Shown here: piece after piece, positions 1 through 11,925 of the stretch
How the letters are laid out: every line of letters starts with the position of its first letter
How positions within the stretch are numbered: position 1 is the stretch's first letter
IMG/VR virus record: IMGVR_UViG_2698536443_000025
Reading direction: 5' to 3' (one strand)
Origin: a virus
Taxonomy: Duplodnaviria; Heunggongvirae; Uroviricota; Caudoviricetes
DNA: 11,925 bases
The notes under the pieces: generated by a model
Told to the model about the DNA's origin: nothing
The model's database searches: none
The model's input: only the letters and a program-made list of their open reading frames with translations
Program-made: the position numbers and the translations under genes

Positions 1-276
1 GTGGCTTCTGTTTCTATCAGCTGTCCCTCCTGTTCAGCTACTGACGGGGTGGTGCGTAACGGCAAAAGCACCGCCGGACATCAGCGCTATCTCTGCTCTC
101 ACTGCCGTAAAACATGGCAACTGCAGTTCACTTACACCGCTTCTCAACCCGGTACGCACCAGAAAATCATTGATATGGCCATGAATGGCGTTGGATGCCG
201 GGCAACCGCCCGCATTATGGGCGTTGGCCTCAACACGATTTTCCGCCATTTAAAAAACTCAGGCCGCAGTCGGTAA
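1..276 (+). CDS. insA: IS1 InsA (transposition inhibitor / N-terminal part of InsAB' transposase)
   Basis: 91-aa translation [37 protein letters not shown]... matches IS1 InsA as I recall it, including the zinc-finger CxxC...CxxC and helix-turn-helix region. GTG at position 1 occupies the usual insA start position. Confidence 0.9.
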
Positions 277-698
277 CCTCGCGCATACAGCCGGGCAGTG
301 ACGTCATCGTCTGCGCGGAAATGGACGAACAGTGGGGATACGTCGGGGCTAAATCGCGCCAGCGCTGGCTGTTTTACGCGTATGACAGGCTCCGGAAGAC
401 GGTTGTTGCGCACGTATTCGGTGAACGCACTATGGCGACGCTGGGGCGTCTTATGAGCCTGCTGTCACCCTTTGACGTGGTGATATGGATGACGGATGGC
501 TGGCCGCTGTATGAATCCCGCCTGAAGGGAAAGCTGCACGTAATCAGCAAGCGATATACGCAGCGAATTGAGCGGCATAACCTGAATCTGAGGCAGCACC
601 TGGCACGGCTGGGACGGAAGTCGCTGTCGTTCTCAAAATCGGTGGAGCTGCATGACAAAGTCATCGGGCATTATCTGAACATAAAACACTATCAATAA
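195..698 (+). CDS. insB: IS1 InsB frame (167 aa; expressed as InsAB' fusion after -1 frameshift)
   Basis: Translation [16 protein letters not shown]...HYLNIKHYQ matches the IS1 insB product (167 aa). It sits in the -1 frame relative to insA and overlaps its 3' end. Confidence 0.9.
252..258 (+). other. A6C programmed -1 ribosomal frameshift motif of IS1 (joins insA to insB')
   Basis: Sequence TTAAAAAACTC at 250-260 contains the AAAAAAC slippery run, just before the insA stop at 274-276, as in the known IS1 frameshift window. Confidence 0.85.
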
Positions 699-713
699 GT
701 TGGAGTCATTACC
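691..713 (+). repeat. IS1 right terminal inverted repeat (IRR)
   Basis: ATCAATAAGTTGGAGTCATTACC is the reverse complement of the IS1 end GGTAATGACTCCAACTTATTGAT. Flanking DNA starts at 714 (AGCAATTCG...). Confidence 0.9.
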
Positions 714-733
714 AGCAATTCGATAAATCCGAT

Positions 734-1027
734 GTGAAAATCGAAATGGTTTTCCTTAACCCCAACACGGGCAAGGTTGAAACTACTTACCCTGTTTTCC
801 GTGGGGTAGTCGATTCCATCGGTATTAACATCGAACATGAAGATGATGAGTGTAAAAACGAATCAGAATTTCAGCTTAATAGTATCTGGGAAGTTCTAGA
901 TAAAAACGCTCGTAGTCATGCCTCCGATGGTATCCACCGTTCCTATGTTGGAAACGAGAACGATCTATTCTTCTCCCGTGCCGGGAAGTGGAACTCAGAA
1001 AGCAAGTGGCATTCATCGAAGAAATAA
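734..1027 (+). CDS. Tail assembly protein K-like N-terminal (MPN/JAMM-like, probably inactive) domain ORF; 5' end apparently truncated by IS1
   Basis: The frame is open from inside IS1 across the junction at 713/714; the first in-frame starts are GTG 734 and ATG 746, neither with a clear Shine-Dalgarno. The translation ...EDDECKNESEF...ARSHASDGIHRSYVGNEND... loosely aligns by eye to lambda gpK residues ~20-110 (PEDC...HSHPGGLPWLSEAD), with the JAMM histidine and aspartate replaced (RSH...G). The assignment is tentative. Confidence 0.45.
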   Translation: MKIEMVFLNPNTGKVETTYPVFRGVVDSIGINIEHEDDECKNESEFQLNSIWEVLDKNARSHASDGIHRSYVGNENDLFFSRAGKWNSESKWHSSKK

Positions 1028-1073
1028 TCCCTTCTCCCTAAGCCTAGTAAATAACAGCATGGAGGTATTCAAC

Positions 1074-1493
1074 ATGCTAAAAACTAGGCTTATCACCGAT
1101 TACATCAATTCTTTAATAGGTCAGGAGTTCGTTCAAGGCGAGAATGATTGCAATCTCATTGCATGTAAGATCATCGATATTCTCGCTGGTACTGACCTAT
1201 ATAATTCTCTTTATAAAAAATATTCAACTAAAGAAGAAGGCTTGAAAATCTGCAAAGAATTAAGCGGATATTCAAACATCCTTCAACCAATTAAGAAACA
1301 TTTCAAATTAGTCACTGATGATTTACAGGACGGCGACTTACTGGTCACAGCCCACAAATTAGGAAACCGTAATTATTATTCCGTAGTTCCTCATTATTCC
1401 GGTTATGGCCTCGTTGAAGAAGATGGTATCTGGATGACCATTCCTGTTTCAGACATTGACTATGAACAAGTTTATAGATTCGGGGGTGAATAA
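1074..1493 (+). CDS. NlpC/P60-family tail assembly protein (lambda gpK C-terminal domain-like)
   Basis: GGAGG at 1061-1065 lies 8 nt before ATG 1074. The translation has GENDC (catalytic Cys candidate), GDLLVTAH and HYSGYG, which parallel lambda K GVTDC / GDVLLC / HAAIYCG. The stop TAA overlaps the next gene start (TAATG at 1491-1495). The track ORF 918-1493 is the same frame extended upstream. Confidence 0.75.
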   Translation: MLKTRLITDYINSLIGQEFVQGENDCNLIACKIIDILAGTDLYNSLYKKYSTKEEGLKICKELSGYSNILQPIKKHFKLVTDDLQDGDLLVTAHKLGNRNYYSVVPHYSGYGLVEEDGIWMTIPVSDIDYEQVYRFGGE

Positions 1494-4400
1494 TGGGATT
1501 TGAAATATTGGTAGGCGCGGTTATTGCTGGTGCGTCTGCTGGGATGGCTGCTGCTGCAACATTTTCTGTTATGACCGCAGTCGCTATCGGTATGGCTGCT
1601 GGTGCAATGACCTTGATCGCTTCCACTGTAGGCGCACCAAAAACACCTAAAGTACAAAGCCCAGATAATGCGGTGACACTAGGAACATCAAACGATCCGA
1701 AAGCGGTGATACCAGTCGTTTTCGGTACTACCCGCACTGGCACAAACTGTGTTTACAAAGCAGTTTCTAAGCAAGAAAACAATAAGCTAGTGCAAATCTT
1801 CTCTGTAGCCGAGGGTGAAATCGACCATTACAAAGCACTCTTTATTGATAATAAAAATGTTCTTGTTGGTAAGAACATGACGATCCGTGATGGTATTCTC
1901 GATAAGGGCAACATTAAAGAAGAATATCGTAAAGTATTAGAAGTCGAGTTCCGCACGGGCAAGAATCCTAACACCGCTTTGTCGCTGGCAAAACGTCATT
2001 TAGGCTCAGACTGGACCGACGCTTTCAAGGGTAACGGCATTGCGACCATGTGTATTGTGTTGCGTCGCGATGACAAATCTCTTGCTGCTGGTGTTGATAT
2101 TCTCCAGCCAAATAGCCAGGTAGCAGTAGACGTTTGCGGCCTTAAAATCCGTAACCTTGAAACCAATGCTATTGAGGCTAGCACTAACGGCGTGGATCAG
2201 ATTTTCCACTACCTAACAAATGAAAAATATGGCTTATCCGTACCAATTGAAAACATTAACGTTGATTCATTCCTGAAAGTACGTAAACAAGTACGCCAGA
2301 TGGATCTACATTCAAACGGTGCATGTGATCCGAACGCCAGCTTTAAAGAAAACTTGACTAATCTTATGCAGACTTTCGGCGGGGTGATGTTCGAATCCTT
2401 TGGACGTATTACGCTGAAACTGGATGCTCCTGATATTGTTAAGCATACCTTCAATGAAGACAATATCATGATGGGTAAGGTATCACTGAAAACAGGTGGC
2501 ACTAACGGTTATTTCAATACCATTAACGCGATGTATCAAGAACCATCAATTGACTATTCAGAGCAAATGCTACGTTATCCGGCTGATGCTGAAAACGATG
2601 CTACTGTTCGCGCAGATGGTCGAATTATTGCTAAGGATGTAGAATATCGTTTCGTTAAGTCTAAAGACCAGATTGATAAACTTGCGAGTATTGAACGAAA
2701 TAAATCTCGTATCACTCAGGTTATCAGCTTTATGACTACTGACGCATTCACTGCCGAAGTATGGGACGTTATCAGCGTAACCTATGATGAATTGAAACTG
2801 AATAATTCTTTATGGCGTATTACTGCAATTGATCGCTCGATTGATTCTGGTATTGCTGGGATGATGACTATCACCGCCACAGAATATAATTCTCAGGTTT
2901 ATACTGACCTGAACTATGCGGCAACTCCAGACAATAGACCAAGTGGTTTACCGGATTCAATGACAGTACAGAAGCCTACTAATTTCAGAATTAAGGCAAC
3001 TGGTGAGACGATTTACGGTAAAAACGTTACTTTGACATGGGATGCACCGGAAGATTTTAACCGTTATGGTTTCCAGATTGATTACCGTGTAAGCGGATCA
3101 CCTAACTGGATTAAGCTGGGACAGACTTCACAGCAAATTTTCAGTGTCAATGCACTGGCAAAAGATCGTTCCTACGATTACCGAGTTTGTGCTTTCGGTA
3201 TCATCGCGCGATCCGATTGGGTAGAACTGATTAACCAGAATCCTACTGTTACCTATGAATTGCCGACTCCGGTTATTCGAATCAAAAATCAGGGTAGCAC
3301 GCCAGGAACTTTCGAAGGTAATGATCTGATTATCGAATGGGAAAATCAGCAACAATTAGATGTTGAGATCAACGGTGAAACTAACAAGTTTAGTGACCTG
3401 TTTGAAGCATACATTATCAAGGTGACTAACAAGGCTGGTAAGTCTATTCAGTACCGTACCCGCGATCCTGAATCATGGACTTATACGCTTGATATGAACC
3501 AATTTAACGGCCTTTCGCGTCAACTGACGGTAGAAGTATCAGCTAAGGGCTATAACAACTCAGAGAGCGCCCCAGCGCGTTTAGTGGCTATCAACCCACA
3601 ACATAAGCCAATGAAAGGTTTTAGTGCGCGTGGTGGCTTTAATACTGCGTTTGTTAGCTGGGCGGATGACGTAGAACATGACTATGCAGGGTCAATCATC
3701 CAGTATGCAACCGACAACACTTTCTCAGATGCAAGGGCAGTAAGTACGAATAGTGTTAGCCATACTTCCTTTGATATTGCTGACGGTGATTATTATATCC
3801 GTGGTGCTCACTACGATATTTTCGGTATGGATGATGCTGTTTGGTCTGAACCGTATTTCATGCAAATGAAGTCTACGATTAGTTGGGACGATCAGGACAA
3901 AGAAGCACTGGAAGACCTGATCGGTTTACAAGATCGCTTAGATGAAACTATCGCGGATGCTATTAAGCAAGCTGGCGCTAATGCCGATGCTAAAATTGAT
4001 GCAATGCATAAGCAAATCACTACCGAGACGGGTAAAACTGTTCAAGCCTCAGCCGATACCTTAAAGAGTCTGATTGCTTCTGGTGATAAGGCAAGTTCAA
4101 CTAAGATTGATCAGGTTAAAGCTGAACTGAAAGGCGATATCACCAAAGAAGTTAGCGCCTCCGCTACAACCCTGAAACAAGCAATTGCAACCAGTGAGGC
4201 AGCAAGCGCAAGTAAGATTGATCAAGTTCGGGTAGAAATGGATGGCAAGATTGCTGGTGTGAATCAGGAAGCAGATGTAAAAATCGATGCTTTGAAAGGA
4301 ACCATTAACAGCAAATACAATCTGGCAGTTAATGCAGATGGTCGTGTGGCTGGTATTCACATGAGCGCAACCAACGATCCGGCACAACCGACTAAAATCA

Positions 4401-5269
4401 TCTTTACGGCTGATAAAATTGCTGTAGCTCCGCAGAACGGGACCGATGTTTGCCCGTTTGGTATCGAAGGTAACAAGGTTTATCTCGATAATGCGATGAT
4501 TCGTAATGCTGCAATTGGTACAGCCCATATTAGTGATGCGGCAATTACTACCGCTAAGATCGGCAATGCTGCAATTAACAGCGCGAAGATTCAGGACGGG
4601 GCAATCACTAACGCCAAGATTGTAAATGGCGCAATTGATAACGCTAAAATCGGTAACTATATCCAGTCTTCCAACTGGAACGGATCGACCGGATGGCATA
4701 TCAACAAGAACGGTAATGCTACGTTCATGAATGCTACCGTTAAAGGTAATATCACGGCTGATTCTGGTACTCTGAACAACGTCACGATTAACTCTAGCTG
4801 TGTTATTAAGGGTATGCTTGAAGCTACTCAGGTTAAGGGTGATTTCGTTAAGGTGATTGGTCGTAAGTTCCCACACCGTGATGTTAACGTTGATAATGGT
4901 TATGGCGGCTATCCGCAAGGTACAGTAACCGTTCGCGTTGAAGATGATCACAAGTTCGATCGTCAAATCGTTATTCCGGCGATTAGTTTTGGTGGATTGC
5001 GAGCGCGTGAAGGGTCGAACAATAATACCTATTACGACACCTGTCGCCTGATTGTTCGTAAGAATGGGTCAGAGTTGTATAATAGGGCGTATGGCGGTAA
5101 TACTGGTCTTTACTCAGGTGTTATTGATATGCCAGCGGGTAAAGGTGCTGTGACCTTGACCTTTGAAGTGCAATCAAGCGCAATCAACAACTGGACGCCT
5201 AGCACATGGATCAGTGATTTAACTGTAATGGTAACTAAAAAAGCCACTACTGGTATTACTGTTTCTTAA
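1493..5269 (+). CDS. Central tail fibre / host specificity protein J (tip attachment protein) with an N-terminal gpI-like domain
   Basis: 1258-aa ORF with GGGGGTGA 4 nt before ATG 1493. The C-terminal ~170 aa (NATVKGNITADSGTLNNVTINSSCVIKG...DRQIVIPAISF...VIDMPAGKGAVTLTF...VMVTKKATTGITVS) parallels the lambda gpJ C-terminus (NANSGTLSNVTIAENCTINGTL...DRQIVVLPLTF...IVDMPAGRGNVILTF...VMVIKKQALGISVV). Residues ~100-130 resemble the gpJ N-terminus. Residues 1-95 (hydrophobic Ala/Gly-rich stretch, then APKTPKVQSPDN and AVIPVVFGTTRTG) resemble the lambda gpI C-terminus (APKARTPRIQTTDN, NVLPVLYGEMRVG). Confidence 0.9.
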   Translation: MGFEILVGAVIAGASAGMAAAATFSVMTAVAIGMAAGAMTLIASTVGAPKTPKVQSPDNAVTLGTSNDPKAVIPVVFGTTRTGTNCVYKAVSKQENNKLVQIFSVAEGEIDHYKALFIDNKNVLVGKNMTIRDGILDKGNIKEEYRKVLEVEFRTGKNPNTALSLAKRHLGSDWTDAFKGNGIATMCIVLRRDDKSLAAGVDILQPNSQVAVDVCGLKIRNLETNAIEASTNGVDQIFHYLTNEKYGLSVPIENINVDSFLKVRKQVRQMDLHSNGACDPNASFKENLTNLMQTFGGVMFESFGRITLKLDAPDIVKHTFNEDNIMMGKVSLKTGGTNGYFNTINAMYQEPSIDYSEQMLRYPADAENDATVRADGRIIAKDVEYRFVKSKDQIDKLASIERNKSRITQVISFMTTDAFTAEVWDVISVTYDELKLNNSLWRITAIDRSIDSGIAGMMTITATEYNSQVYTDLNYAATPDNRPSGLPDSMTVQKPTNFRIKATGETIYGKNVTLTWDAPEDFNRYGFQIDYRVSGSPNWIKLGQTSQQIFSVNALAKDRSYDYRVCAFGIIARSDWVELINQNPTVTYELPTPVIRIKNQGSTPGTFEGNDLIIEWENQQQLDVEINGETNKFSDLFEAYIIKVTNKAGKSIQYRTRDPESWTYTLDMNQFNGLSRQLTVEVSAKGYNNSESAPARLVAINPQHKPMKGFSARGGFNTAFVSWADDVEHDYAGSIIQYATDNTFSDARAVSTNSVSHTSFDIADGDYYIRGAHYDIFGMDDAVWSEPYFMQMKSTISWDDQDKEALEDLIGLQDRLDETIADAIKQAGANADAKIDAMHKQITTETGKTVQASADTLKSLIASGDKASSTKIDQVKAELKGDITKEVSASATTLKQAIATSEAASASKIDQVRVEMDGKIAGVNQEADVKIDALKGTINSKYNLAVNADGRVAGIHMSATNDPAQPTKIIFTADKIAVAPQNGTDVCPFGIEGNKVYLDNAMIRNAAIGTAHISDAAITTAKIGNAAINSAKIQDGAITNAKIVNGAIDNAKIGNYIQSSNWNGSTGWHINKNGNATFMNATVKGNITADSGTLNNVTINSSCVIKGMLEATQVKGDFVKVIGRKFPHRDVNVDNGYGGYPQGTVTVRVEDDHKFDRQIVIPAISFGGLRAREGSNNNTYYDTCRLIVRKNGSELYNRAYGGNTGLYSGVIDMPAGKGAVTLTFEVQSSAINNWTPSTWISDLTVMVTKKATTGITVS
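4505..4654 (+). repeat. Five tandem 30-bp coding repeats inside J (10-aa units NAAIGTAHIS / DAAITTAKIG / NAAINSAKIQ / DGAITNAKIV / NGAIDNAKIG)
   Basis: Direct reading of 4505-4654 shows five in-frame 30-nt units with the conserved core GC(N)GCAAT...GC(N)AAGAT. It is a coding repeat with no spacers, not a CRISPR array. Confidence 0.8.
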
Positions 5270-5288
5270 AAATTTAATTTTAATAATT

Positions 5289-5330
5289 AATCCCGCTTAA
5301 TTCTTTTGAGTTAGGCGGGATTATTTTTAT
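5289..5330 (+). terminator. Rho-independent terminator downstream of J
   Basis: Inverted repeat AATCCCGC (5289-5296) / GCGGGATT (5315-5322) followed by ATTTTTAT, 20 nt after the J stop codon. The loop is long (18 nt), so efficiency is uncertain. Confidence 0.55.
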
Positions 5331-5375
5331 CTAAATAATTTTGCCATTAAACTATATAAAAATATCGGGGGCGTA

Positions 5376-5654
5376 ATGACTGAAATTATATATGGCGGTA
5401 TCGGTGTTATCGCCTTAATTTGTGGTGGTCTTTGGAGACTTCACCGAAATCAATTAGCAACTGAAAATAGATTGTCGAAATTGGAATCCAGCGACGCATT
5501 GTTAAACCAGAAGTTTGAGACGATGCAGAATAACCATACTCAGATTGCTGAACGTGTTTACCAAATGGAACAAACACTACACGGTATAGAGAAGAAAGTG
5601 GTTGCGATGGATGCTAAATTTGACCAAGTTCTCGACATACTCAAACAAAAATAA
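5376..5654 (+). CDS. Membrane-anchored coiled-coil protein (92 aa), function unknown
   Basis: CGGGGG Shine-Dalgarno 5 nt before ATG 5376. N-terminal hydrophobic segment IIYGGIGVIALICGGLW, followed by a heptad-like coiled-coil region. First gene of a co-directional operon. Confidence 0.75.
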   Translation: MTEIIYGGIGVIALICGGLWRLHRNQLATENRLSKLESSDALLNQKFETMQNNHTQIAERVYQMEQTLHGIEKKVVAMDAKFDQVLDILKQK

Positions 5655-5672
5655 TAATAAAGGGGTGAATAT

Positions 5673-5843
5673 ATGAAGAATAAACTTAAGAAATATTTTG
5701 GTTATCTCTTGATTGTCGCCCTCACTTATAACGTAGCTATTAGACCTCTGCTAACGTCCTTTGGGCTTGAACTCCCGGCTATGACCGTGGATGAACAATT
5801 GCTAAGGACACTGGCGGGGGTCTTTTCGTTATTAGGGGGCTAA
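5673..5843 (+). CDS. Small hydrophobic protein (56 aa), not in the supplied ORF track
   Basis: AAGGGGTG Shine-Dalgarno 7 nt before ATG 5673. Translation MKNKLKKYFGYLLIVALTYNVAIRPLLTSFGLELPAMTVDEQLLRTLAGVFSLLGG with no internal stops. The stop TAA 5841-5843 sits 1 nt before ATG 5845 of the next gene, and the ORF fills an otherwise unexplained 190-bp gap in a tight operon. Confidence 0.6.
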   Translation: MKNKLKKYFGYLLIVALTYNVAIRPLLTSFGLELPAMTVDEQLLRTLAGVFSLLGG

Positions 5844-5844
5844 C

Positions 5845-6528
5845 ATGGCAACCAGTACCAATAAACGAAACGCTCTAAGGACTAAGAAAGCGTTACGGCA
5901 ATGGTCTGAAAAGGCAACCGATACATTCGAAAGGGCACTAGGGGAAGGGGCGATCTTTGCTTCCAGAGCACTCCAGAAGAAGATTAACAAGAATGTTGAT
6001 AGACCTACTCGATGGACTCAACAAGCTGTAGGTAATACCAACTACAAGAACCGATCAGGGACCAGACACCAAATCTTCATCAAGGGCGCAAGGGATAAGG
6101 ACAAGAAGATCGGCAGTCAGGATGACTATCTGAAACACTATTTCGATGGTGGCAAAATCAATAAGCTAGTGCCAATCGCCAACGGTAAGGTCTTAGACTC
6201 CCACGGGAACATTAAGGCCATCAAAGGCGGTAAGATGATGCGTAACATCGAAAACGGCAACTTCATCAAGGTAGAGAACAAGGAAGGGACTTTTATCATG
6301 AAGAAGTACAAGCCTAAGAAATCCCGAACCAAACGCGCTAAGAATGGATCGGCGGTGGCAAAACGTCGCTTAGAGAAACGCATCCAGAAACAGAGTAAGC
6401 GAATTGTTGCCGTTAAGTCGGATAAAATTTCTACTCGTTATTCGACGCTAGGATCGTGGGAAAGCAACGAAGCAATGATGCTTGAAAACATCAATAAGCA
6501 CATTAAATCGCGCATGAAATACGTTTAA
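5845..6528 (+). CDS. Lysine/arginine-rich basic protein (227 aa), function unknown
   Basis: TAGGGGG Shine-Dalgarno before ATG 5845. Long ORF with strongly basic composition (KKYKPKKSRTKRAKNGSAVAKRRLEKRIQKQSKR). No motif recognised. Confidence 0.75.
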   Translation: MATSTNKRNALRTKKALRQWSEKATDTFERALGEGAIFASRALQKKINKNVDRPTRWTQQAVGNTNYKNRSGTRHQIFIKGARDKDKKIGSQDDYLKHYFDGGKINKLVPIANGKVLDSHGNIKAIKGGKMMRNIENGNFIKVENKEGTFIMKKYKPKKSRTKRAKNGSAVAKRRLEKRIQKQSKRIVAVKSDKISTRYSTLGSWESNEAMMLENINKHIKSRMKYV

Positions 6529-6538
6529 TCAATAAATA

Positions 6539-6560
6539 CCCTCATAGAATCTTATGGGGG
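6539..6560 (+). promoter_or_regulatory. RNA hairpin sequestering the Shine-Dalgarno of the 6567 gene
   Basis: CCCTCATA (6539-6546) pairs with TATGGGGG (6553-6560) as 8 bp including one G-U, with a 6-nt loop. The GGGGG Shine-Dalgarno of ATG 6567 lies in the 3' arm. Confidence 0.4.
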
Positions 6561-6566
6561 TATAAC

Positions 6567-6914
6567 ATGGCTAAAAATATTTTCACTGAATTTCCTACTT
6601 ATCCGGTTGATCAGCTTTCCGGTATTTTTATTAATGGCATTAGCCCAGAATCTATGACCTATGATTTTGAGGCGAAGAGAGTTAAACATAAACAATATAA
6701 AGAATGTATCCGTGACCATGAAAAGGGGACCGTGTTTTGTGTCGCTACATTGGCTAAACGTCCTAAATATCGTTTTCGTGTAGGGCAAGAAGTCGATGTA
6801 GTTAATCCTTATAGCTTTAACTGTCTGGGTGATGCACGCGCGGTGTGTGTAGGCACTGCTCCTTATTATATCAAGGGTATGCGCTTTATTGGTTATATCT
6901 TCGAAATGATCTAA
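6567..6914 (+). CDS. Hypothetical protein (115 aa)
   Basis: GGGGG Shine-Dalgarno 6 nt before ATG 6567, co-directional operon context, and 9-nt spacing to the next gene. No motif recognised. Confidence 0.7.
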   Translation: MAKNIFTEFPTYPVDQLSGIFINGISPESMTYDFEAKRVKHKQYKECIRDHEKGTVFCVATLAKRPKYRFRVGQEVDVVNPYSFNCLGDARAVCVGTAPYYIKGMRFIGYIFEMI

Positions 6915-6923
6915 GGGGGTAAT

Positions 6924-7277
6924 ATGTTAAGTAAGCATTTTTCTCGCAAGGAATTTAAATGTAAATGCGGAAAATGTGATTATGATACAATCGACGCTGA
7001 ATTACTGGTGATTCTTGAGGATGTACGAGAGCACTTCGGTAAACCAGTGATTATTAACAGTGGGAACCGTTGCCCGACTCATAACAAGAATGTAGGCGGC
7101 GCAACCAATAGCTATCATGTTCGAGGCCGCGCGGCTGACATTGTTATCAAGGGTGTCTCGCCTGATATTGTTCATGCTTATCTTGATGGGAAATATCCTA
7201 CTCAATACGGCTTAGGAAAATATAAAACCTTTACGCATATTGATTCCAGATCAAAAAAATCACGGTGGAATGGATAA
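6924..7277 (+). CDS. Peptidase M15 family zinc metallopeptidase (M15_3/M15A-type cell-wall peptidase, endolysin-like)
   Basis: AAGGGGG Shine-Dalgarno before ATG 6924. Translation has FSRKEFKCKCGKC at the N-terminus and SGNRCPTHNKNVGGATNSYHVRGRAADI...FTHID, the His/Asp/His zinc-ligand pattern of M15-type D-Ala-D-Ala carboxypeptidase-like phage peptidases. Recognised from memory, not searched. Confidence 0.8.
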   Translation: MLSKHFSRKEFKCKCGKCDYDTIDAELLVILEDVREHFGKPVIINSGNRCPTHNKNVGGATNSYHVRGRAADIVIKGVSPDIVHAYLDGKYPTQYGLGKYKTFTHIDSRSKKSRWNG

Positions 7278-7280
7278 AAC

Positions 7281-7308
7281 AAAAGCGCCTCTGGTGGGCG
7301 CTTTTTTG
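7281..7308 (+). terminator. Rho-independent terminator ending the accessory operon
   Basis: Stem AGCGCC (7284-7289) / GGCGCT (7297-7302) with a 7-nt loop, followed by TTTTT (7303-7307), immediately after the TAA at 7275-7277. Confidence 0.8.
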
Positions 7309-7383
7309 TTAGAATATGCTGGCGACGTTAGCTATATTTCTGACTATTTTTTCATTATAGACAAATATACCGCAGAAGATAAA

Positions 7384-7626
7384 GTGGTATTTGATGAAGC
7401 AGATCCGTCACTGGTTGAAGCAATGAAAGAACCGGAACCAGTAGAAGAAACTCCGGTAGTGGAACCTGTCATTGAAGAAGTTCAGCCAGTAGTTGAAGAA
7501 GTACCGGAAGTTAACGCAGAATCTCCGGTAGCCAACATTTTCTCTGACGAAGCAGAGCATCGTTCTCCGGTACATGACACAGAAACATTTTGCGATCTTA
7601 CTGGTTTCCAAAACTACAATAATTAA
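7384..7626 (+). CDS. Acidic Pro/Glu/Val-rich protein (start uncertain: GTG 7384 or ATG 7423)
   Basis: Clear GNN-rich codon periodicity in the frame ending at TAA 7624-7626 (EPEPVEETPVVEPVIEEVQPVVEEVPEV...). The track start at 7240 is unlikely because it would overlap the preceding gene and contain the terminator hairpin. No strong Shine-Dalgarno at either candidate start. Confidence 0.4.
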   Translation: MVFDEADPSLVEAMKEPEPVEETPVVEPVIEEVQPVVEEVPEVNAESPVANIFSDEAEHRSPVHDTETFCDLTGFQNYNN

Positions 7627-7636
7627 TTCTTATAAA

Positions 7637-7673
7637 TAGTAGTGAATATTATTTTATTGAGGATTCACTACTA
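7637..7673 (+). promoter_or_regulatory. 11-bp perfect inverted repeat overlapping the RBS and start codon of the 7673 gene (operator or translational hairpin)
   Basis: TAGTAGTGAAT (7637-7647) and ATTCACTACTA (7663-7673) are exact reverse complements separated by 15 nt. The spacer holds the GAGGA Shine-Dalgarno (7659-7663), and the right arm ends on the A of ATG 7673. Confidence 0.5.
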
Positions 7674-8671
7674 TGAATACTACTTTAGCAAAGGATATCG
7701 AATTTACCGCAAAAAGCAAACGTGCGACCCCTCCGGTCGAATATGAAACCAGAATCATTAAAGTTTGTCAAGTGCATGGATGGTTATACAGTGGTTTTGT
7801 GCTTCCTGTAAAGAAACCATTCCAGAACACCAAAGTTTGCATAGAAGTTAACGGAAAGGTTAAAACGCCATGTATTAGTCATGTTCTAACTGGTCAGTTT
7901 ACTGGCAAAGATAGAGTATCACCGCCTAAGAAGAAGTTTAGATTTACCGAAGAAGAACACTTAGAAAACGCTCGCAAGTTCTACAAGCCGATAGGGTGGG
8001 ATGTGTTAGGTCTGGCTGAACCTTATCAGGGTGTTGACACTAAACTAATTCTTCGTTGTAAGTGCCACGGAAAGATTCACAAGAAAGGTGATTTACACAA
8101 TAACCGCAGACAAGGCGGGTTAACATGCCCTTTGGTTAGGGGGGTACTTAAATCAATTCAGAACGGTAGAAAACAGGTTATCAGAAACAAGTTTGCACAG
8201 CGCCCTATGCACTTTTATCTAATTCGTGTTGGCGAGAAGTTTTTCAAATATGGAATTACCACTCGCAAAGATCCGATGCAACGGGTAAGAGAACACCAGA
8301 AGCACACCAGCGAGAAAATCACCTTTGAATGCTCACATTTGTTTAACATTGGATGGAAAGCTGGTGATTTAGAAATGGGGATTAAAAAGAATATTCAGGG
8401 CAAGAAAATCCCACGTAAGGTAATGAATAGCGGATTCACAGAAACGCTACCGATTAGCAAGCTGAAAGATGTTAAATCATTCATCAATGAATACATCCAC
8501 ACCAACCCATCTAAGCCAATGTATTTTGATGATACCAACGCAATCAATCTGAACAACTACATTAGTGATGAAGACATAGAACGAGATTTATCGCAGTGGA
8601 TGAATGCACCGTTAGCTGATTTAATACCGGAAGACTTAGAACTCGATTTAAGCCCATTAGAGACACTCTAA
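7673..8671 (+). CDS. T5orf172-domain (GIY-YIG superfamily) protein with Cys/His-rich N-terminal region and acidic C-terminal tail
   Basis: 332-aa ORF with GAGGA Shine-Dalgarno. Residues ~185-215 FYLIRVGEKFFKYGITTRKDPMQRVREH fit the T5orf172 signature (...KIGxTTRxPxxR...). The N-terminal ~180 aa carry CQVHG, C...C and CKCHGKIH motifs suggesting zinc binding. The C-terminus is acidic (EDLELDLSPLETL). Confidence 0.75.
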   Translation: MNTTLAKDIEFTAKSKRATPPVEYETRIIKVCQVHGWLYSGFVLPVKKPFQNTKVCIEVNGKVKTPCISHVLTGQFTGKDRVSPPKKKFRFTEEEHLENARKFYKPIGWDVLGLAEPYQGVDTKLILRCKCHGKIHKKGDLHNNRRQGGLTCPLVRGVLKSIQNGRKQVIRNKFAQRPMHFYLIRVGEKFFKYGITTRKDPMQRVREHQKHTSEKITFECSHLFNIGWKAGDLEMGIKKNIQGKKIPRKVMNSGFTETLPISKLKDVKSFINEYIHTNPSKPMYFDDTNAINLNNYISDEDIERDLSQWMNAPLADLIPEDLELDLSPLETL

Positions 8672-8683
8672 CGCAATTAAATT

Positions 8684-8717
8684 AAAAAGGGGTACGAATG
8701 TACCCCTTAACTGTTTT
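8684..8717. terminator. Bidirectional rho-independent terminator between convergent genes
   Basis: Perfect 7-bp stem GGGGTAC (8689-8695) / GTACCCC (8700-8706) with a 4-nt loop. It is flanked by AAAAA upstream (a U-run for the minus-strand transcript) and TTAACTGTTTT downstream (a weaker U-run for the plus strand). Confidence 0.7.
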
Positions 8718-8744: not shown

Positions 8745-10424
8745 TTAAATTCCAAATTCCTGTAATGGACCTGGTATTTCCTCTTCTGGCTTCCAGTCTT
8801 TATCTGTCAGCATGTCTAAACATGGATGCAGAACAAGCCCGTTACTCTCCAGAATCTGCCTATCATTGATAGTTTTCAAATCGACAAAGATTTGTCCTTT
8901 CCTCGGTCCTCTTGAATTTTCTATTACAACTCTCTGGGTCTTGCCATCAATGTATTCCAGTACAAACAAGTTTTTGTATTTGTCAATCCTGCTACACCCG
9001 ATCCGTTTTAGAGCTTGCTTAATCTTAAACCGGACCTTAATGCGATCCTCGTTATAAACATCTTCTAAATCAAATTCTGCGAGCTTCTCCCAGCCTTGAG
9101 AGTCCACAGAATACATTTCCTCTTCTGCCATCTTAATCTGATTATAGAGTGTTTCACGCTCGCTATTGAGGGTAGTAATCTGGTCGGCTAACTCCTTCGT
9201 TGCTCCAGTCATAGCAGAAAGGGTAATCAGGTTATCAATCTTGCGTGATATCTCATCAATCTGTACTTTCAAAGCCGGAACAGGATTAGCCTTATCCTCA
9301 GCAATCCAGATTTTATCAGCCAGCAATTGCAATACAGCTTTCTCTAATTGATCACCTCGAAAACTCCAGTTTGTATGCACACATGCAATACGACTAGAGC
9401 GCATTGCATCGCATGAATAACGATATTGGTTAGGCCGTTTGTTAGTTCCTTTCACCTTAACCATAGCGGAACCGCAATGTTCACATTTCAGCAGATTAAC
9501 ACCACTAAGCAGGGGGATCGGTTTAGCTTCTTCTTTGTCTCCATAGTTACATGCTCTAACACCAATGCTTTTCTTAAGGTGATAAAACTCAGCGTCATCT
9601 AGCACACGAGGGTAATAATCCTTTAACTCATACTTAACGCCATCTACAGAGATTTCCTTGATACCAATCAAAGCGCGGGTATGGAACAACCTTTCAATCA
9701 TTGCCCGTGACCAGTTTGAATGCCTCTTGTGACTTGCGGCTGGTGGTGGTGTGTATGTCGCGTTAAGGTGATCCAGTATCTCGGCGGTTGACCGTCCATT
9801 CCTGCGTAATTCCACAACTTCCTGAACAATAGGGAAGAAGACCGGATGAGGAAGCACATAACCAGATGTGGTATCAGTCCACCACATATTCTTTCCAATT
9901 TCCTCGATTGCAACAGCCGGATTTTGTGGATTTTCTTGATGAGCTTTAATCTTAATCAGTGCGCTTGAGTTAGTACGATTGCGCTTAGTCTGGCTTTCCT
10001 CATTACCACGGATGAATAAAAGGATGGAGAACATCAGGTCCATCGGGTTAGCGGTAACAGTATCAAGCGAGTAGATCTTGTTATCCATGCCAGTAACAAT
10101 GGTTATCCCCCTACGGATGATTGAAAGGAATAACTCCTGCGCACTGACAATATCGGCACGGGATAAACGGTCCAAGTTTTCGATGAATAGCCAGCTACCA
10201 ACAGGAACGGATCTACCTATTGCATCAAGGAAACGAGATAGCGCCCCTGTTTTGGAGTTAGCACCCTTAAACGCAGATACACCCAGATCCTGATAATCAT
10301 TTACCAGTTCAAGGTCATACTTTACCGCAATCTCTCTAGCCATCCTGATTTGTCGTTCATAACTCGAACCATCATTCTGACGCATAGACGAGAAGCGAAT
10401 ATACGAATACAGTTTAGTTTTCAT
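8745..10424 (-). CDS. Large serine recombinase (putative serine integrase)
   Basis: The N-terminal resolvase-type catalytic domain has YIRFSSMRQ (catalytic Ser) and ENLDRLSR. It is followed by a recombinase domain, a zinc ribbon (CEHCGS...YRYSC...AC) and a coiled-coil region. Start taken at ATG 10424-10422 (MKTKLYSYIRFSS); the track ORF starts at an in-frame TTG at 10439. Confidence 0.9.
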   Translation of the reverse strand: MKTKLYSYIRFSSMRQNDGSSYERQIRMAREIAVKYDLELVNDYQDLGVSAFKGANSKTGALSRFLDAIGRSVPVGSWLFIENLDRLSRADIVSAQELFLSIIRRGITIVTGMDNKIYSLDTVTANPMDLMFSILLFIRGNEESQTKRNRTNSSALIKIKAHQENPQNPAVAIEEIGKNMWWTDTTSGYVLPHPVFFPIVQEVVELRRNGRSTAEILDHLNATYTPPPAASHKRHSNWSRAMIERLFHTRALIGIKEISVDGVKYELKDYYPRVLDDAEFYHLKKSIGVRACNYGDKEEAKPIPLLSGVNLLKCEHCGSAMVKVKGTNKRPNQYRYSCDAMRSSRIACVHTNWSFRGDQLEKAVLQLLADKIWIAEDKANPVPALKVQIDEISRKIDNLITLSAMTGATKELADQITTLNSERETLYNQIKMAEEEMYSVDSQGWEKLAEFDLEDVYNEDRIKVRFKIKQALKRIGCSRIDKYKNLFVLEYIDGKTQRVVIENSRGPRKGQIFVDLKTINDRQILESNGLVLHPCLDMLTDKDWKPEEEIPGPLQEFGI

Positions 10425-10442
10425 ACCATTTCCAAACAAAAA

Positions 10443-10472
10443 CGCCCCTACCGCGTATTATAACGATAGGGG
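10443..10472 (-). terminator. Hairpin plus U-run (minus strand) directly upstream of the recombinase start, with a TATAAT hexamer in its loop
   Basis: On the minus strand: GCCCCTA-(16-nt loop containing TATAAT)-TAGGGGC followed by GTTTTTGTTT, ending ~10 nt before ATG 10424. The stem is 7 bp. Confidence 0.5.
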
Positions 10473-10487
10473 CTAGGTGATTAAAGA

Positions 10488-10907
10488 TTAAAGAATTTCA
10501 CGGCAGCTAATCAGGGAATAAGACGTATCACCTTTTTTAACATCAAATATAGGCGCGCCATCTACAGAATGCAGATATTTGATGTAGGATTTACCATCTT
10601 CGGAACCATAATATTCTTCTTTCTCGTTCTTATCTTCTTTCAGTTTTGGGCTTTTGATTGTTTTATCAAATACCGGATCGTTGAAAGCAAATTGACTATT
10701 ATCATCATTCACTCGAACCTTTACACCGATAAAACCACGGTATTTGCCAGACGGCGCATGATAATAACGGTCGCCATCACTCAGGTAGCGTGTATCATCT
10801 CCTTTATATTCGAAGTAGGAATTGCACACATAATAGGTATAGGTATTAGCATTCGCAGCACCAACCAAACCCAGAGCAAGAACAACACCAGCGATAATCT
10901 TTTTCAT
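10488..10907 (-). CDS. Secreted (signal-peptide) protein, 139 aa, function unknown
   Basis: AGAGGAA Shine-Dalgarno 8 nt before the ATG. N-terminus MKKIIAGVVLALGLVGAANA is a typical Sec signal peptide with an A-N-A cleavage motif and no lipobox cysteine. The mature part is Tyr/Asp/Lys-rich with two Cys. Confidence 0.75.
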   Translation of the reverse strand: MKKIIAGVVLALGLVGAANANTYTYYVCNSYFEYKGDDTRYLSDGDRYYHAPSGKYRGFIGVKVRVNDDNSQFAFNDPVFDKTIKSPKLKEDKNEKEEYYGSEDGKSYIKYLHSVDGAPIFDVKKGDTSYSLISCREIL

Positions 10908-10952
10908 AGTAGAATTTCCTCTTGTTGTTTGAATTACGATATATTTATATCA

Positions 10953-11075
10953 TTAAAAGTTAATGCTAATAATCAGCCCAAACACAACCGCACCAATCAA
11001 ATCAATCCAGTTAATACACAGCGAATATTCTTTCTTGAATGTCTTAGATGAAATGCCATCATGAAATTGTTTCAT
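10953..11075 (-). CDS. Small membrane peptide (40 aa), not in ORF track
   Basis: Minus-strand ATG 11075 preceded by GGGGTGAG. Translation MKQFHDGISSKTFKKEYSLCINWIDLIGAVVFGLIISINF has a C-terminal hydrophobic helix. It is in the same frame as the upstream 26-aa ORF, separated only by TGA-GCA. Confidence 0.35.
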   Translation of the reverse strand: MKQFHDGISSKTFKKEYSLCINWIDLIGAVVFGLIISINF

Positions 11076-11078
11076 TGC

Positions 11079-11159
11079 TCACCCCATACTAACGACAATA
11101 TAAGAAAGACTAATCATGGTTGTGAGACTACCTCCCACGAATGAGATAAAAGCTAACAT
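11079..11159 (-). CDS. Small hydrophobic peptide (26 aa), not in ORF track
   Basis: Minus-strand ATG 11159 preceded by GGAGAA 8 nt upstream. Translation MLAFISFVGGSLTTMISLSYIVVSMG, stop TGA 11081-11079. It lies immediately downstream of a minus-strand terminator hairpin. Confidence 0.3.
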   Translation of the reverse strand: MLAFISFVGGSLTTMISLSYIVVSMG

Positions 11160-11175
11160 GTTTGATTCTCCATTT

Positions 11176-11201
11176 AAAAAGCGGTGGGAATTACACCCAC
11201 C
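11176..11201 (-). terminator. Rho-independent terminator (minus strand) after the 145-aa gene
   Basis: On the minus strand: GGTGGG-TGTAATT-CCCACC followed by GCTTTTTAAA (plus-strand stem arms 11183-11188 and 11196-11201, A-run 11176-11180), 15 nt after the stop at 11216. Confidence 0.6.
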
Positions 11202-11215
11202 AAATTAGAAATTAA

Positions 11216-11653
11216 TTAAGCGCGAACGATGGTCAGAGTATCCAGCAAACCTTTTTCGTATAATTCGAAACACGTTTTATATTGCTCAATCTTCCAACCG
11301 TAGCGGGTGATCTTATTCAGTAGAATAATCACGGTATTCTCATCTAGGTATTGTCCTTGCTTACCAATTACATATGACTCGCGGGATAGTCTCAGCTTAC
11401 GGAAACCTTTAACACCTAATTCCTTAGCCACCGCTTTAATCTCGTTAATCTCACCTTCTGCGGCTACATATTCAGCGTCGATAATCTCAGTTGATGATCT
11501 CAGTGCTACCAGAACTAAGGCCATTGCTTCTTCTTCGGTACGAGCAACACCAGCTTTCTCGAAAGTCATCTCACCAAATTTACGAGTCATAATATTGAAC
11601 ATTGTCTGTATTCCGTTTAAATCGGCGGGAATAGTACCCGCCAAATTAGACAT
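11216..11653 (-). CDS. Hypothetical protein (145 aa)
   Basis: Long minus-strand ORF whose ATG overlaps the stop of the upstream ORF (TAATG at 11653), suggesting translational coupling. No motif recognised. Confidence 0.7.
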   Translation of the reverse strand: MSNLAGTIPADLNGIQTMFNIMTRKFGEMTFEKAGVARTEEEAMALVLVALRSSTEIIDAEYVAAEGEINEIKAVAKELGVKGFRKLRLSRESYVIGKQGQYLDENTVIILLNKITRYGWKIEQYKTCFELYEKGLLDTLTIVRA

Positions 11654-11925
11654 TACTTCTTGCTGATAAACTCTTTAGCGATAAAGTTGATTACTTCTTT
11701 CAGCTTCTTGTCTGTATCGATGCACGCTGGTAATTCTTCTTTAATATCCTGCGGCAGATACACATTGCCTTTAAAGTGGAGGAAACCATCATTACCAATC
11801 ATGTAGGAGAACATCCATTCACAATCGTTATCCGCTTCCCAGAACGCCACGGTCTCATCCCCAATCAAGGTAATGTCCATGTTGCGACGCGCTGCGTAGT
11901 TGATGATTGCTTTACCGATGTTCAT
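11653..11925 (-). CDS. Hypothetical protein (90 aa if the ATG at the window edge is the true start; may be a 3' fragment of a longer gene)
   Basis: Minus-strand ORF running from the window edge (ATG at 11925-11923) to TAA at 11655-11653. Coupled to the downstream gene by the TAATG overlap. No motif recognised. Confidence 0.55.
   Translation of the reverse strand: MNIGKAIINYAARRNMDITLIGDETVAFWEADNDCEWMFSYMIGNDGFLHFKGNVYLPQDIKEELPACIDTDKKLKEVINFIAKEFISKK

Follow-up and report, generated by a model that had tools for sequence, protein, structure and literature searches.

Comparative sequence evidence for two separate membrane micro-protein genes in the serine-integrase operon of an enterobacterial prophage family

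Introduction

Does a single in-frame TGA between two very short hydrophobic open reading frames (ORFs) mark a broken gene, a recoded gene, or the boundary between two genes? The question is raised by the minus strand of an 11,925-nucleotide (nt) stretch of viral DNA (Caudoviricetes; IMG/VR record IMGVR_UViG_2698536443_000025), here called the window. An earlier note on this DNA had described a 26-amino-acid (aa) ORF1 with a GGAGAA Shine-Dalgarno (SD) sequence, followed through TGA-GCA by a 40-aa ORF2 in the same frame, and this layout was borne out by our reading of the minus strand. The note left open whether the pair represents a nonsense-disrupted gene, stop-codon readthrough of a 68-aa product resembling a holin, or two real micro-proteins. 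From comparison of homologous loci we propose that ORF1 and ORF2 very probably encode two separately translated, coupled single-pass membrane micro-proteins which, together with a serine integrase, make up the constant part of an operon that also has cargo slots.

Results

Conservation of ORF1, ORF2 and their junction

The appearance of the pair is by itself within chance. A transmembrane (TM)-like stretch was present in 10 of the 43 ORFs of 25-45 aa that begin with ATG in the window, and the prior for two adjacent ORFs sharing a frame is 1 in 3. Among the window's hydrophobic mini-ORFs, a canonical SD sequence was found only at ORF1. The pair is judged real because it is conserved and not because of its looks.

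Forty-eight copies of the locus were compared (the window, 11 RefSeq loci, 1 ENA contig, 26 IMG/VR contigs and 9 Logan contigs). The junction TGA-GCA-ATG was kept in 35/35 copies carrying the window-type ORF1 allele, while in the remaining 13 loci it differed, with an altered frame, an ATGA overlap, or intervening genes or other stops in 12 of the 13 (Table 1). Over all alleles the ORF1 stop was TGA, TAA or TAG, the frame relative to ORF2 was 0, +1 or +2, and the spacing was 3, 5, 9 or 10 nt, a 4-nt ATGA overlap, or 181-220 nt or more. Upstream of ORF2, the relatives carried either AGGAGAATCAAA or ATGA coupling. When the loci were checked for a sense codon at the position of the TGA, none of the 48 had one in place of the ORF1 stop. 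Judged from these alleles, the frame shared across the TGA is incidental to one of them.

With respect to the ORFs themselves, ORF1 homologs of 25-27 aa were found in 47/48 loci and share the motif LISF..T[IM].S.VY.VV, and the length of ORF2 was constant at 39-41 aa, the 40-aa and 41-aa forms being related by an in-frame 3-nt indel. These lengths hold although the integrases of diverged loci are only 69-75% identical at the protein level to that of the window; the host ycdY gene of these loci shows 70-79% nucleotide identity to that of E. coli, and they lie in other enterobacterial genera. The ratio of nonsynonymous to synonymous polymorphism (pN/pS) was 0.07-0.38 for ORF2 and 0-0.55 for ORF1, with one close allele of ORF1 at 0.61 on three substitutions only. 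Among close alleles, variable sites at codon positions 1/2/3 numbered 8/5/20 in ORF2 and 1/0/7 in ORF1. Codons 1-15 of ORF2 in the diverged loci L014-L018 differed from the window by synonymous changes only, including a serine switch from TCT to AGC. An exhaustive profile search with ORF2 (1.84 billion representatives) returned 9 clusters only, of 39-41 aa bar one over-extended call, in which an invariant M[KR]QFHxGISSKT is followed by a hydrophobic helix. A scan for ORF2 of one genome per species gave no match, nor did locus scans for ORF1 with a narrower alignment, the full ORF1 alignment being too variable for such scans.

At the level of sequence comparison, ORF1 and ORF2 are demonstrably two existing, separate and conserved protein-coding genes under purifying selection. 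This is the outcome that the earlier note had listed as two real micro-proteins, and it holds on the retention of both ORFs over the 48 loci and on substitutions of the coding type; the opposite outcome, that neither ORF is conserved in relatives, was looked for and not observed.

The membrane-helix character of both products was equally clear. ORF1 contains no charged residues and has a grand average of hydropathy (GRAVY) of 1.64. In ORF2 the invariant N-terminus MKQFHDGISSKTFKK is followed by a C-terminal TM helix; hydropathy places the hydrophobic stretch at residues 18-40, and the AlphaFold2 (AF2) model is a single helix over residues 9-39 with a predicted local distance difference test (pLDDT) score of ~91 at residues 21-40. 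The protein ends inside the TM helix (...GLIISINF). Each ORF also has signals for its own translation: the distance from GGAG to the ORF1 ATG is 8 nt, and GGGGTGAG, which spans the end of ORF1, is a plausible SD sequence for ORF2.

Both ORFs had been thought unannotated, which is correct for ORF1 apart from a single unnamed gene call in IMG and incorrect for ORF2, which is the RefSeq hypothetical protein WP_000808558.1 and is called by the Prokaryotic Genome Annotation Pipeline (PGAP) in some genomes (WP_265343599.1, WP_274540528.1). One nt past the ORF2 stop lies an AT-rich palindrome, GATATAAATATATC (10938-10951, minus strand), which is present in all E. coli-group loci regardless of the downstream cargo gene and may be a protein-binding or recombination site.

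The prophage, the integrase operon and its cargo

E. coli 14EC029 carries in hicB a ~34-kb prophage whose left end is identical to the region. A 308-bp segment spanning ORF1 and ORF2 was found in ~58 of 5,426 complete E. coli genomes and in 26 IMG/VR viral contigs, most of them ~30-45 kb. No cultured phage in INPHARED resembles the region. Among 50,697 phage records the fused peptide had no tblastn match, and with the region and window positions 1-8700 as megablast queries the only matches were IS1 and tiny fragments. The host element belongs to an uncharacterised family of ~35-kb enterobacterial temperate phages.

On the minus strand the order is attachment site (att), 90-aa gene, 145-aa gene, a terminator-like hairpin (T1), ORF1, ORF2, 139-aa gene, a second hairpin (T2), serine recombinase gene (int) and a bidirectional terminator. 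The plus strand carries the structural genes and the lysis genes, among them that of an M15 endolysin (6924-7277). The linkage of int to ORF1 and ORF2 is firmly established, as it was observed in all contexts examined; ORF2 lies upstream of int, and the two are separated in each case by either 30-65 nt or a single cargo gene. The window and L002-L011 carry after ORF2 cargo genes with a near-identical signal peptide (MKKIIAGVVLALGLVGAANA) and upstream junction and with unrelated mature domains, a pattern suggestive of cassettes exchanged through recombination inside the signal-peptide region. These cargo proteins range from roughly 75 to 348 aa, and other cargo slots hold OmpW/Ail-like barrels (L049, L050).

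Several further observations concern the prophage as a whole. A hypothetical protein of RB49-like T-even phages (Krischvirus) shares ~46% identity with the 145-aa protein over the C-terminal half of the latter, and no comparable micro-ORF pair follows the homolog in those phages. Prophage relatives (L015-L017, L045) carry UvsW-, UvsY- and Gp38-like genes. Overall the genome is of the temperate siphovirus type, contains T-even-like modules and has no representative in culture. An IS1 copy at 1-~715, 99.9% identical to the IS1 of phages P1 and RCS47, lies in or next to the tail-gene region. Between the lysis genes and int, a 332-aa gene (7673-8671, plus strand) matches phrog_681, endonuclease-type (E = 4e-20), and is missing from the otherwise near-identical prophage of NZ_CP024141.1. 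The same position is occupied in relatives by genes of the GIY-YIG/T5orf172 type and may therefore be a slot for mobile nucleases.

Terminators and a predicted promoter split by integration

The intrinsic terminator which the earlier note placed just upstream of ORF1 was confirmed as a conserved, terminator-like element with compensatory stem changes. In a census of 39 loci, stem variants of T1 were GGTGGG/CCCACC, GGCGGG/CCCGCC, AGCGGG/CCCGCT and GGTGGG/CCCGCC, and the T-run was kept in 36/39. The three loci without a T-run nevertheless kept the stem, which suggests a role beyond simple termination; regulated read-through of T1 is possible. Counterparts of T1 lie at ~1119 in L011, ~1116 in L012 and 3654-3671 in L050. 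A promoter before ORF1 using the T1 loop (TGTAAT/TGCAAT) as its -10 was considered and rejected, as the A at position 2 is absent, the -35 is poor and the promoter scan did not flag it. The hairpin directly upstream of int, T2, is conserved in remote loci (L015 6127-6155; L050 5576-5617) with a -35-like TTAA[AT]A 16-17 nt before its TATAAT loop (10/12), and is a candidate int promoter embedded in a terminator; transcripts from it would be without the hairpin's 5' arm.

Where the locus is diverged, no hairpin stands before ORF1, which is coupled straight to the gene upstream of it; the pair is thus part of one operon running from att to int. At most 36 nt separate the att junction from the start of the first gene in this operon, too little to accommodate a phage promoter when the prophage is integrated. 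Reconstruction of the phage site attP from both prophage ends, for three integration specificities (hicB, ycdX and codB), gave a sigma-70-type promoter in each (Table 1), with the -35 TTGAC[TC] at the prophage right end, the -10 TATCAT at the left end and the crossover core in the 16-18 nt spacer. The sites attL, attR and attB reached only 7-9/12 with poorer spacing. As the promoter is complete only at attP, transcription of the operon is predicted to start from circular phage DNA, and integration to deprive the operon of its promoter. A conserved terminator hairpin stands just upstream of the -35 at the right end. The split-promoter sites lie ~35 nt beyond window position 11925, at 100-215 and 34470-34600 in L045, at 440-540 and 36100-36260 in L051 and, in reverse complement, near 42860-42990 and 19780-19930 in L052.

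Table 1. Features of the window, ORF1-ORF2 junctions in loci without the window-type allele, and promoters reconstructed at attP (L numbers are our labels for individual loci)
Feature	Position or locus	Strand	Description
Large serine recombinase (integrase)	8745..10439	minus	Pfam Resolvase, Recombinase, Zn_ribbon_recom; phrog_95 integrase
T2	10444..10473	minus	strong 11-bp terminator hairpin, loop TATAAT; directly upstream of integrase gene
Cargo gene	10488..10907	minus	139-aa protein with signal peptide, downstream of ORF2; variable among loci
ORF2	10953..11075	minus	MKQFHDGISSKTFKKEYSLCINWIDLIGAVVFGLIISINF; 40-aa tail-anchored-type micro-protein; start ATG 11075, stop TAA 10955-10953
Spacer GCA	11076..11078	minus	3 nt, ORF1 stop to ORF2 ATG; read from sequence
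ORF1	11079..11159	minus	MLAFISFVGGSLTTMISLSYIVVSMG; 26-aa uncharged hydrophobic micro-protein; start ATG 11159, stop TGA 11081-11079
SD sequence of ORF1	11166..11171	minus	GGAGAA; read from sequence; kept in E. coli-group loci
T1	11176..11202	minus	TGGTGGG-TGTAATT-CCCACCG + T5, intrinsic-terminator-like; hairpin 11202-11182, T-run 11180-11176; between 145-aa gene and ORF1
Upstream operon genes	11216..11925	minus	90 aa (11653-11925) and 145 aa (11216-11653); phrog_6147, phrog_14908; presence varies among loci
Junction	L005		ORF1 MNLLISFVCSVFLAILSSVYIVVVAVG; TAA, then 5 nt, frame +2
Junction	L011		ORF1 MKLLELLILSIFSAFVLAVYIVVIV; TAG, then 10 nt, frame +1
Junction	L012		MKLLELL-type ORF1 allele; TAG, then 9 nt
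Junction	L044		MKLLELL-type ORF1 allele with 1-nt deletion; ORF1 frameshifted, junction unscored
Junction	L018		ORF1 MAALLSFASAVVITILSYVYVVVSAV; ORF1 stop/ORF2 start overlap ATGA
Junction	L014-L017, L047-L050		25-26 aa ORF1 homolog; 1-2 complete genes (62, 75 or 77 aa) intervene, all ATGA-overlapped
attP promoter, hicB type	L045		TTGACT-17 nt-TATCAT; 10/12
attP promoter, ycdX type	L051		TTGACT-18 nt-TATCAT; 10/12
attP promoter, codB type	L052		TTGACC-16 nt-TATCAT; 10/12

Discussion

Weighing the two-gene reading and its alternatives

A few points weigh against the interpretation of ORF1 and ORF2 as two working membrane micro-protein genes. Their translation is deduced from sequence comparison. 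T1 lies directly upstream of ORF1 and no convincing promoter follows it, which bears on the transcription of the window allele. In one IMG/VR copy (L044) a 1-nt deletion within a T-run (~1000-1075) shifts the frame of ORF1, so that either ORF1 is dispensable at least there or the deletion is an assembly or homopolymer sequencing error. The MKLLELL-type ORF1 allele has only the VYIVV motif in common with the others and might be a non-homologous replacement. Finally, scans of ORF1, ORF2 and the fused 68-mer against Pfam, PHROGs, NCBIfam and PADLOC found no significant family, a PDB profile search gave no match, and a literature search on the accessions and the prophage family found nothing; with no relative of known function, function is inferred from anatomy only.

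It is quite unlikely that the peptides are toxic, membrane-damaging products, whether as a type I toxin-like addiction module or as a non-canonical holin/antiholin pair. In size and hydrophobicity they do resemble type I toxins, which are 19-50 aa long, toxin-antitoxin systems of type I have been described from prophages (PMC12648545), and a terminator just upstream would suit tight control. Against this, the pair is operonic, ATGA-coupled to its neighbours and equipped with a strong SD sequence, unlike the monocistronic, translation-repressed mRNAs of type I toxins, and no antisense promoter/terminator pair stands out and no Rfam match was obtained. A plus-strand scan antisense to the pair gave one weak promoter-like site (10944-10973, 9/12), fewer sites than in shuffled sequences, and no terminator, although an unannotated small RNA is still conceivable. 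As for a holin, the endolysin gene has no textbook holin gene directly adjoining it. The pair, however, is in the int operon, on the strand opposite the late operon and ~3.7 kb from the endolysin gene, and both peptides lack the charged C-terminal tail typical of holins. A class II holin has two TM segments in one polypeptide, and the products here are two peptides with one each. The resemblance to holins noted earlier rested on the fused product and does not carry over to the separate peptides encoded opposite the lysis genes. Better holin or spanin candidates are two TM proteins of the late operon, of 92 aa and 56 aa. The former (5376-5654, plus strand) has an N-terminal TM segment and then a polar stretch that looks coiled-coil-like by eye, the latter (5673-5843, plus strand) also has a TM segment, and both genes lie ~1 kb upstream of the endolysin gene. 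The 115-aa ORF directly before the endolysin gene has no TM segment.

Still less probable is that ORF1 and ORF2 are regulatory upstream ORFs, in which the act of translation, through coupling or attenuation of cargo and int, would matter and the peptides would not. The tight coupling (3-nt spacer or ATGA) is consistent with such a role, as are a weak structure which covers the SD sequence and start of ORF2 and would be opened by ribosomes finishing ORF1, and the position of the ORF2 end in remote loci, 12-15 nt before the terminator hairpin preceding int. This fold is, however, insignificant (14/200 shuffles were equal), and the constraint is on amino acids: pN/pS is below 1, the 15 N-terminal residues of ORF2 are invariant despite synonymous change, and lengths and motifs are kept. 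The downstream partner also changes, being ORF2, a 62-aa, 75-aa or 77-aa gene, or cargo, so that a fixed regulatory target does not exist. ORF2 as an attenuation leader for int was likewise rejected, as a cargo gene intervenes in the window and the peptide sequence is constrained.

Programmed readthrough or recoding of the TGA, with tryptophan or selenocysteine inserted to give a 68-aa holin- or pinholin-like protein with two TM segments, is highly improbable. The frame is open across a single TGA in all 35 window-type alleles, TGA is the leakiest stop in E. coli, and a 68-aa product with W at the TGA position (P0002) exists in public databases. The DNA from which P0002 derives (ENA contig ROBE23-1...scaffold_2318; L013 537-743) nevertheless reads TGA, and P0002 is therefore an artefact of a gene call that took TGA as Trp. 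The TAA and TAG stops, other frames, ATGA overlaps and intervening genes of the other alleles mean that the junction varies and that the fused frame is not maintained by selection, and ORF2 has its own ATG preceded by the SD-like GGGGTGAG. Structure 3' of the TGA was insignificant (-17 kcal/mol, z = -1.65, 14/200 shuffles as good), and no selenocysteine insertion sequence (SECIS)-like or other Rfam element matched after the TGA at E<=1, with sub-threshold noise only in the region. The readthrough suggested earlier is thus contradicted by an allele-specific junction that nowhere holds a sense codon; a low-level incidental leak through the TGA of the window allele, if any, would not be a conserved feature.

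Least probable of all is a pseudogene, in which an ancestral 68-codon gene was hit by the nonsense mutation first suspected from the single stop in one frame, for neither the 48 loci nor protein collections of 5.8 and 1.84 billion entries yielded an intact 68-codon version, both halves are still under purifying selection as separate genes joined by a variable junction, and the different frames or intervening genes of the most diverged relatives make separateness the ancestral state. As no conserved fused frame exists, both readthrough and a nonsense-disrupted gene are rejected.

Possible function and significance

If ORF1 and ORF2 are two separately translated genes, the ORF1 peptide would be essentially a bare TM helix of 26 aa, and ORF2 a short, invariant, Lys-rich N-terminal segment, predicted to be cytoplasmic by the positive-inside rule, followed by one C-terminal TM helix. 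Their translation would be coupled, through the 3-nt gap from stop to ATG in the window allele and through the ATGA overlap in relatives, and cargo would have entered at three points: ahead of ORF1, in the gap from ORF1 to ORF2, and in that from ORF2 to int. Because the only good sigma-70 promoter of the operon is assembled across attP, expression would be mainly from circular phage DNA. The peptides may act at the host inner membrane, during infection or while lysogeny is being established, and could for instance keep superinfecting DNA from entering or modulate a membrane protein of the host, with the invariant N-terminus of ORF2 as a putative partner-binding face; we put this forward as a tentative suggestion. 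A more specific proposal, which we consider unlikely, is that the ORF1 and ORF2 products serve the serine-integrase module as dedicated partners, are made from circular DNA alone and have a role in an infection-time decision or process. They might, for example, gate the envelope against superinfecting phage until integration has taken place, or use MKQFHDGISSKTFKK to tether or control either the integrase or a host factor. Were this so, lysogeny establishment in a lineage of serine-integrase phages would have a new, conserved component in these micro-proteins.

These data remove a tempting story of recoding or gene decay and identify the '68-aa protein' of the databases as a translation-table artefact. 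The pair belongs to the small phage-encoded membrane proteins, and with it two bona fide micro-protein families, one already present in RefSeq as a hypothetical protein and the other, at 26 aa, essentially invisible to gene callers, are added to the under-annotated small proteome of E. coli prophages. Since they stay strictly linked to the serine integrase even between genera, it is reasonable to consider them candidates for lysogeny establishment or envelope protection. The operon, with its predicted attP-split promoter, two conserved terminators and swappable cargo slots, would constitute a compact system in which to study integration-state-dependent expression.

Comparison with known systems

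Small single-pass membrane proteins of fewer than 50 aa, such as KdpF, AcrZ, MgrB and CydX, have been reviewed (PMC12648545). ORF1 and ORF2 resemble this class in size (26 and 40 aa), in the possession of one hydrophobic helix and in being missed by annotation, as these proteins often are; both are below 50 aa, with one predicted TM segment and conserved coding. Members of the class are frequently operonic and act by binding larger membrane proteins. ORF1 and ORF2 are set apart by their lack of sequence relationship to any named member, their phage origin and their link to a serine integrase.

Superinfection-exclusion or moron membrane proteins, such as HK97 gp15 and T4 Imm and Sp, are small inner-membrane proteins encoded among accessory genes, and are larger, at roughly 60-100 aa or more. 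The setting is similar, as neighbouring slots here hold conversion-type cargo (secreted proteins and OmpW/Ail-like barrels). ORF1 and ORF2 are, however, unrelated to these proteins in sequence and form conserved backbone rather than variable cargo. No promoter was found between T1 and ORF1, and the pair is invariant where the neighbouring cargo varies, which is not the pattern of a moron. That the operon is seemingly promoterless when integrated argues against classic exclusion expressed by the lysogen.

As short hydrophobic peptides, the products recall the type I toxins Hok, TisB, Ibs, Ldr and Fst, from which they differ in that no antisense RNA is evident and in the operonic, coupled arrangement of their genes. 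Two TM segments, as in the pinholin S21-68, would be present in the hypothetical 68-aa fusion; the fusion is not conserved, however, and the two genes lie outside the lysis cassette and encode no charged C-terminal tail.

In the integrative and conjugative elements (ICEs) ICEKp1, ICEclc and ICEEc1, integrase transcription depends on the integration state (PMC13023037). Transcription toward int in the present prophages is similarly predicted to need joined element ends. The ICEs have a complete promoter at the far end which reads across attP, whereas here the -35 and -10 are predicted from sequence to flank the crossover. The circles of IS911 and IS30 have junction promoters whose hexamers come from opposite sides, and the split attP promoter is closer to these than to the promoters of the ICEs.

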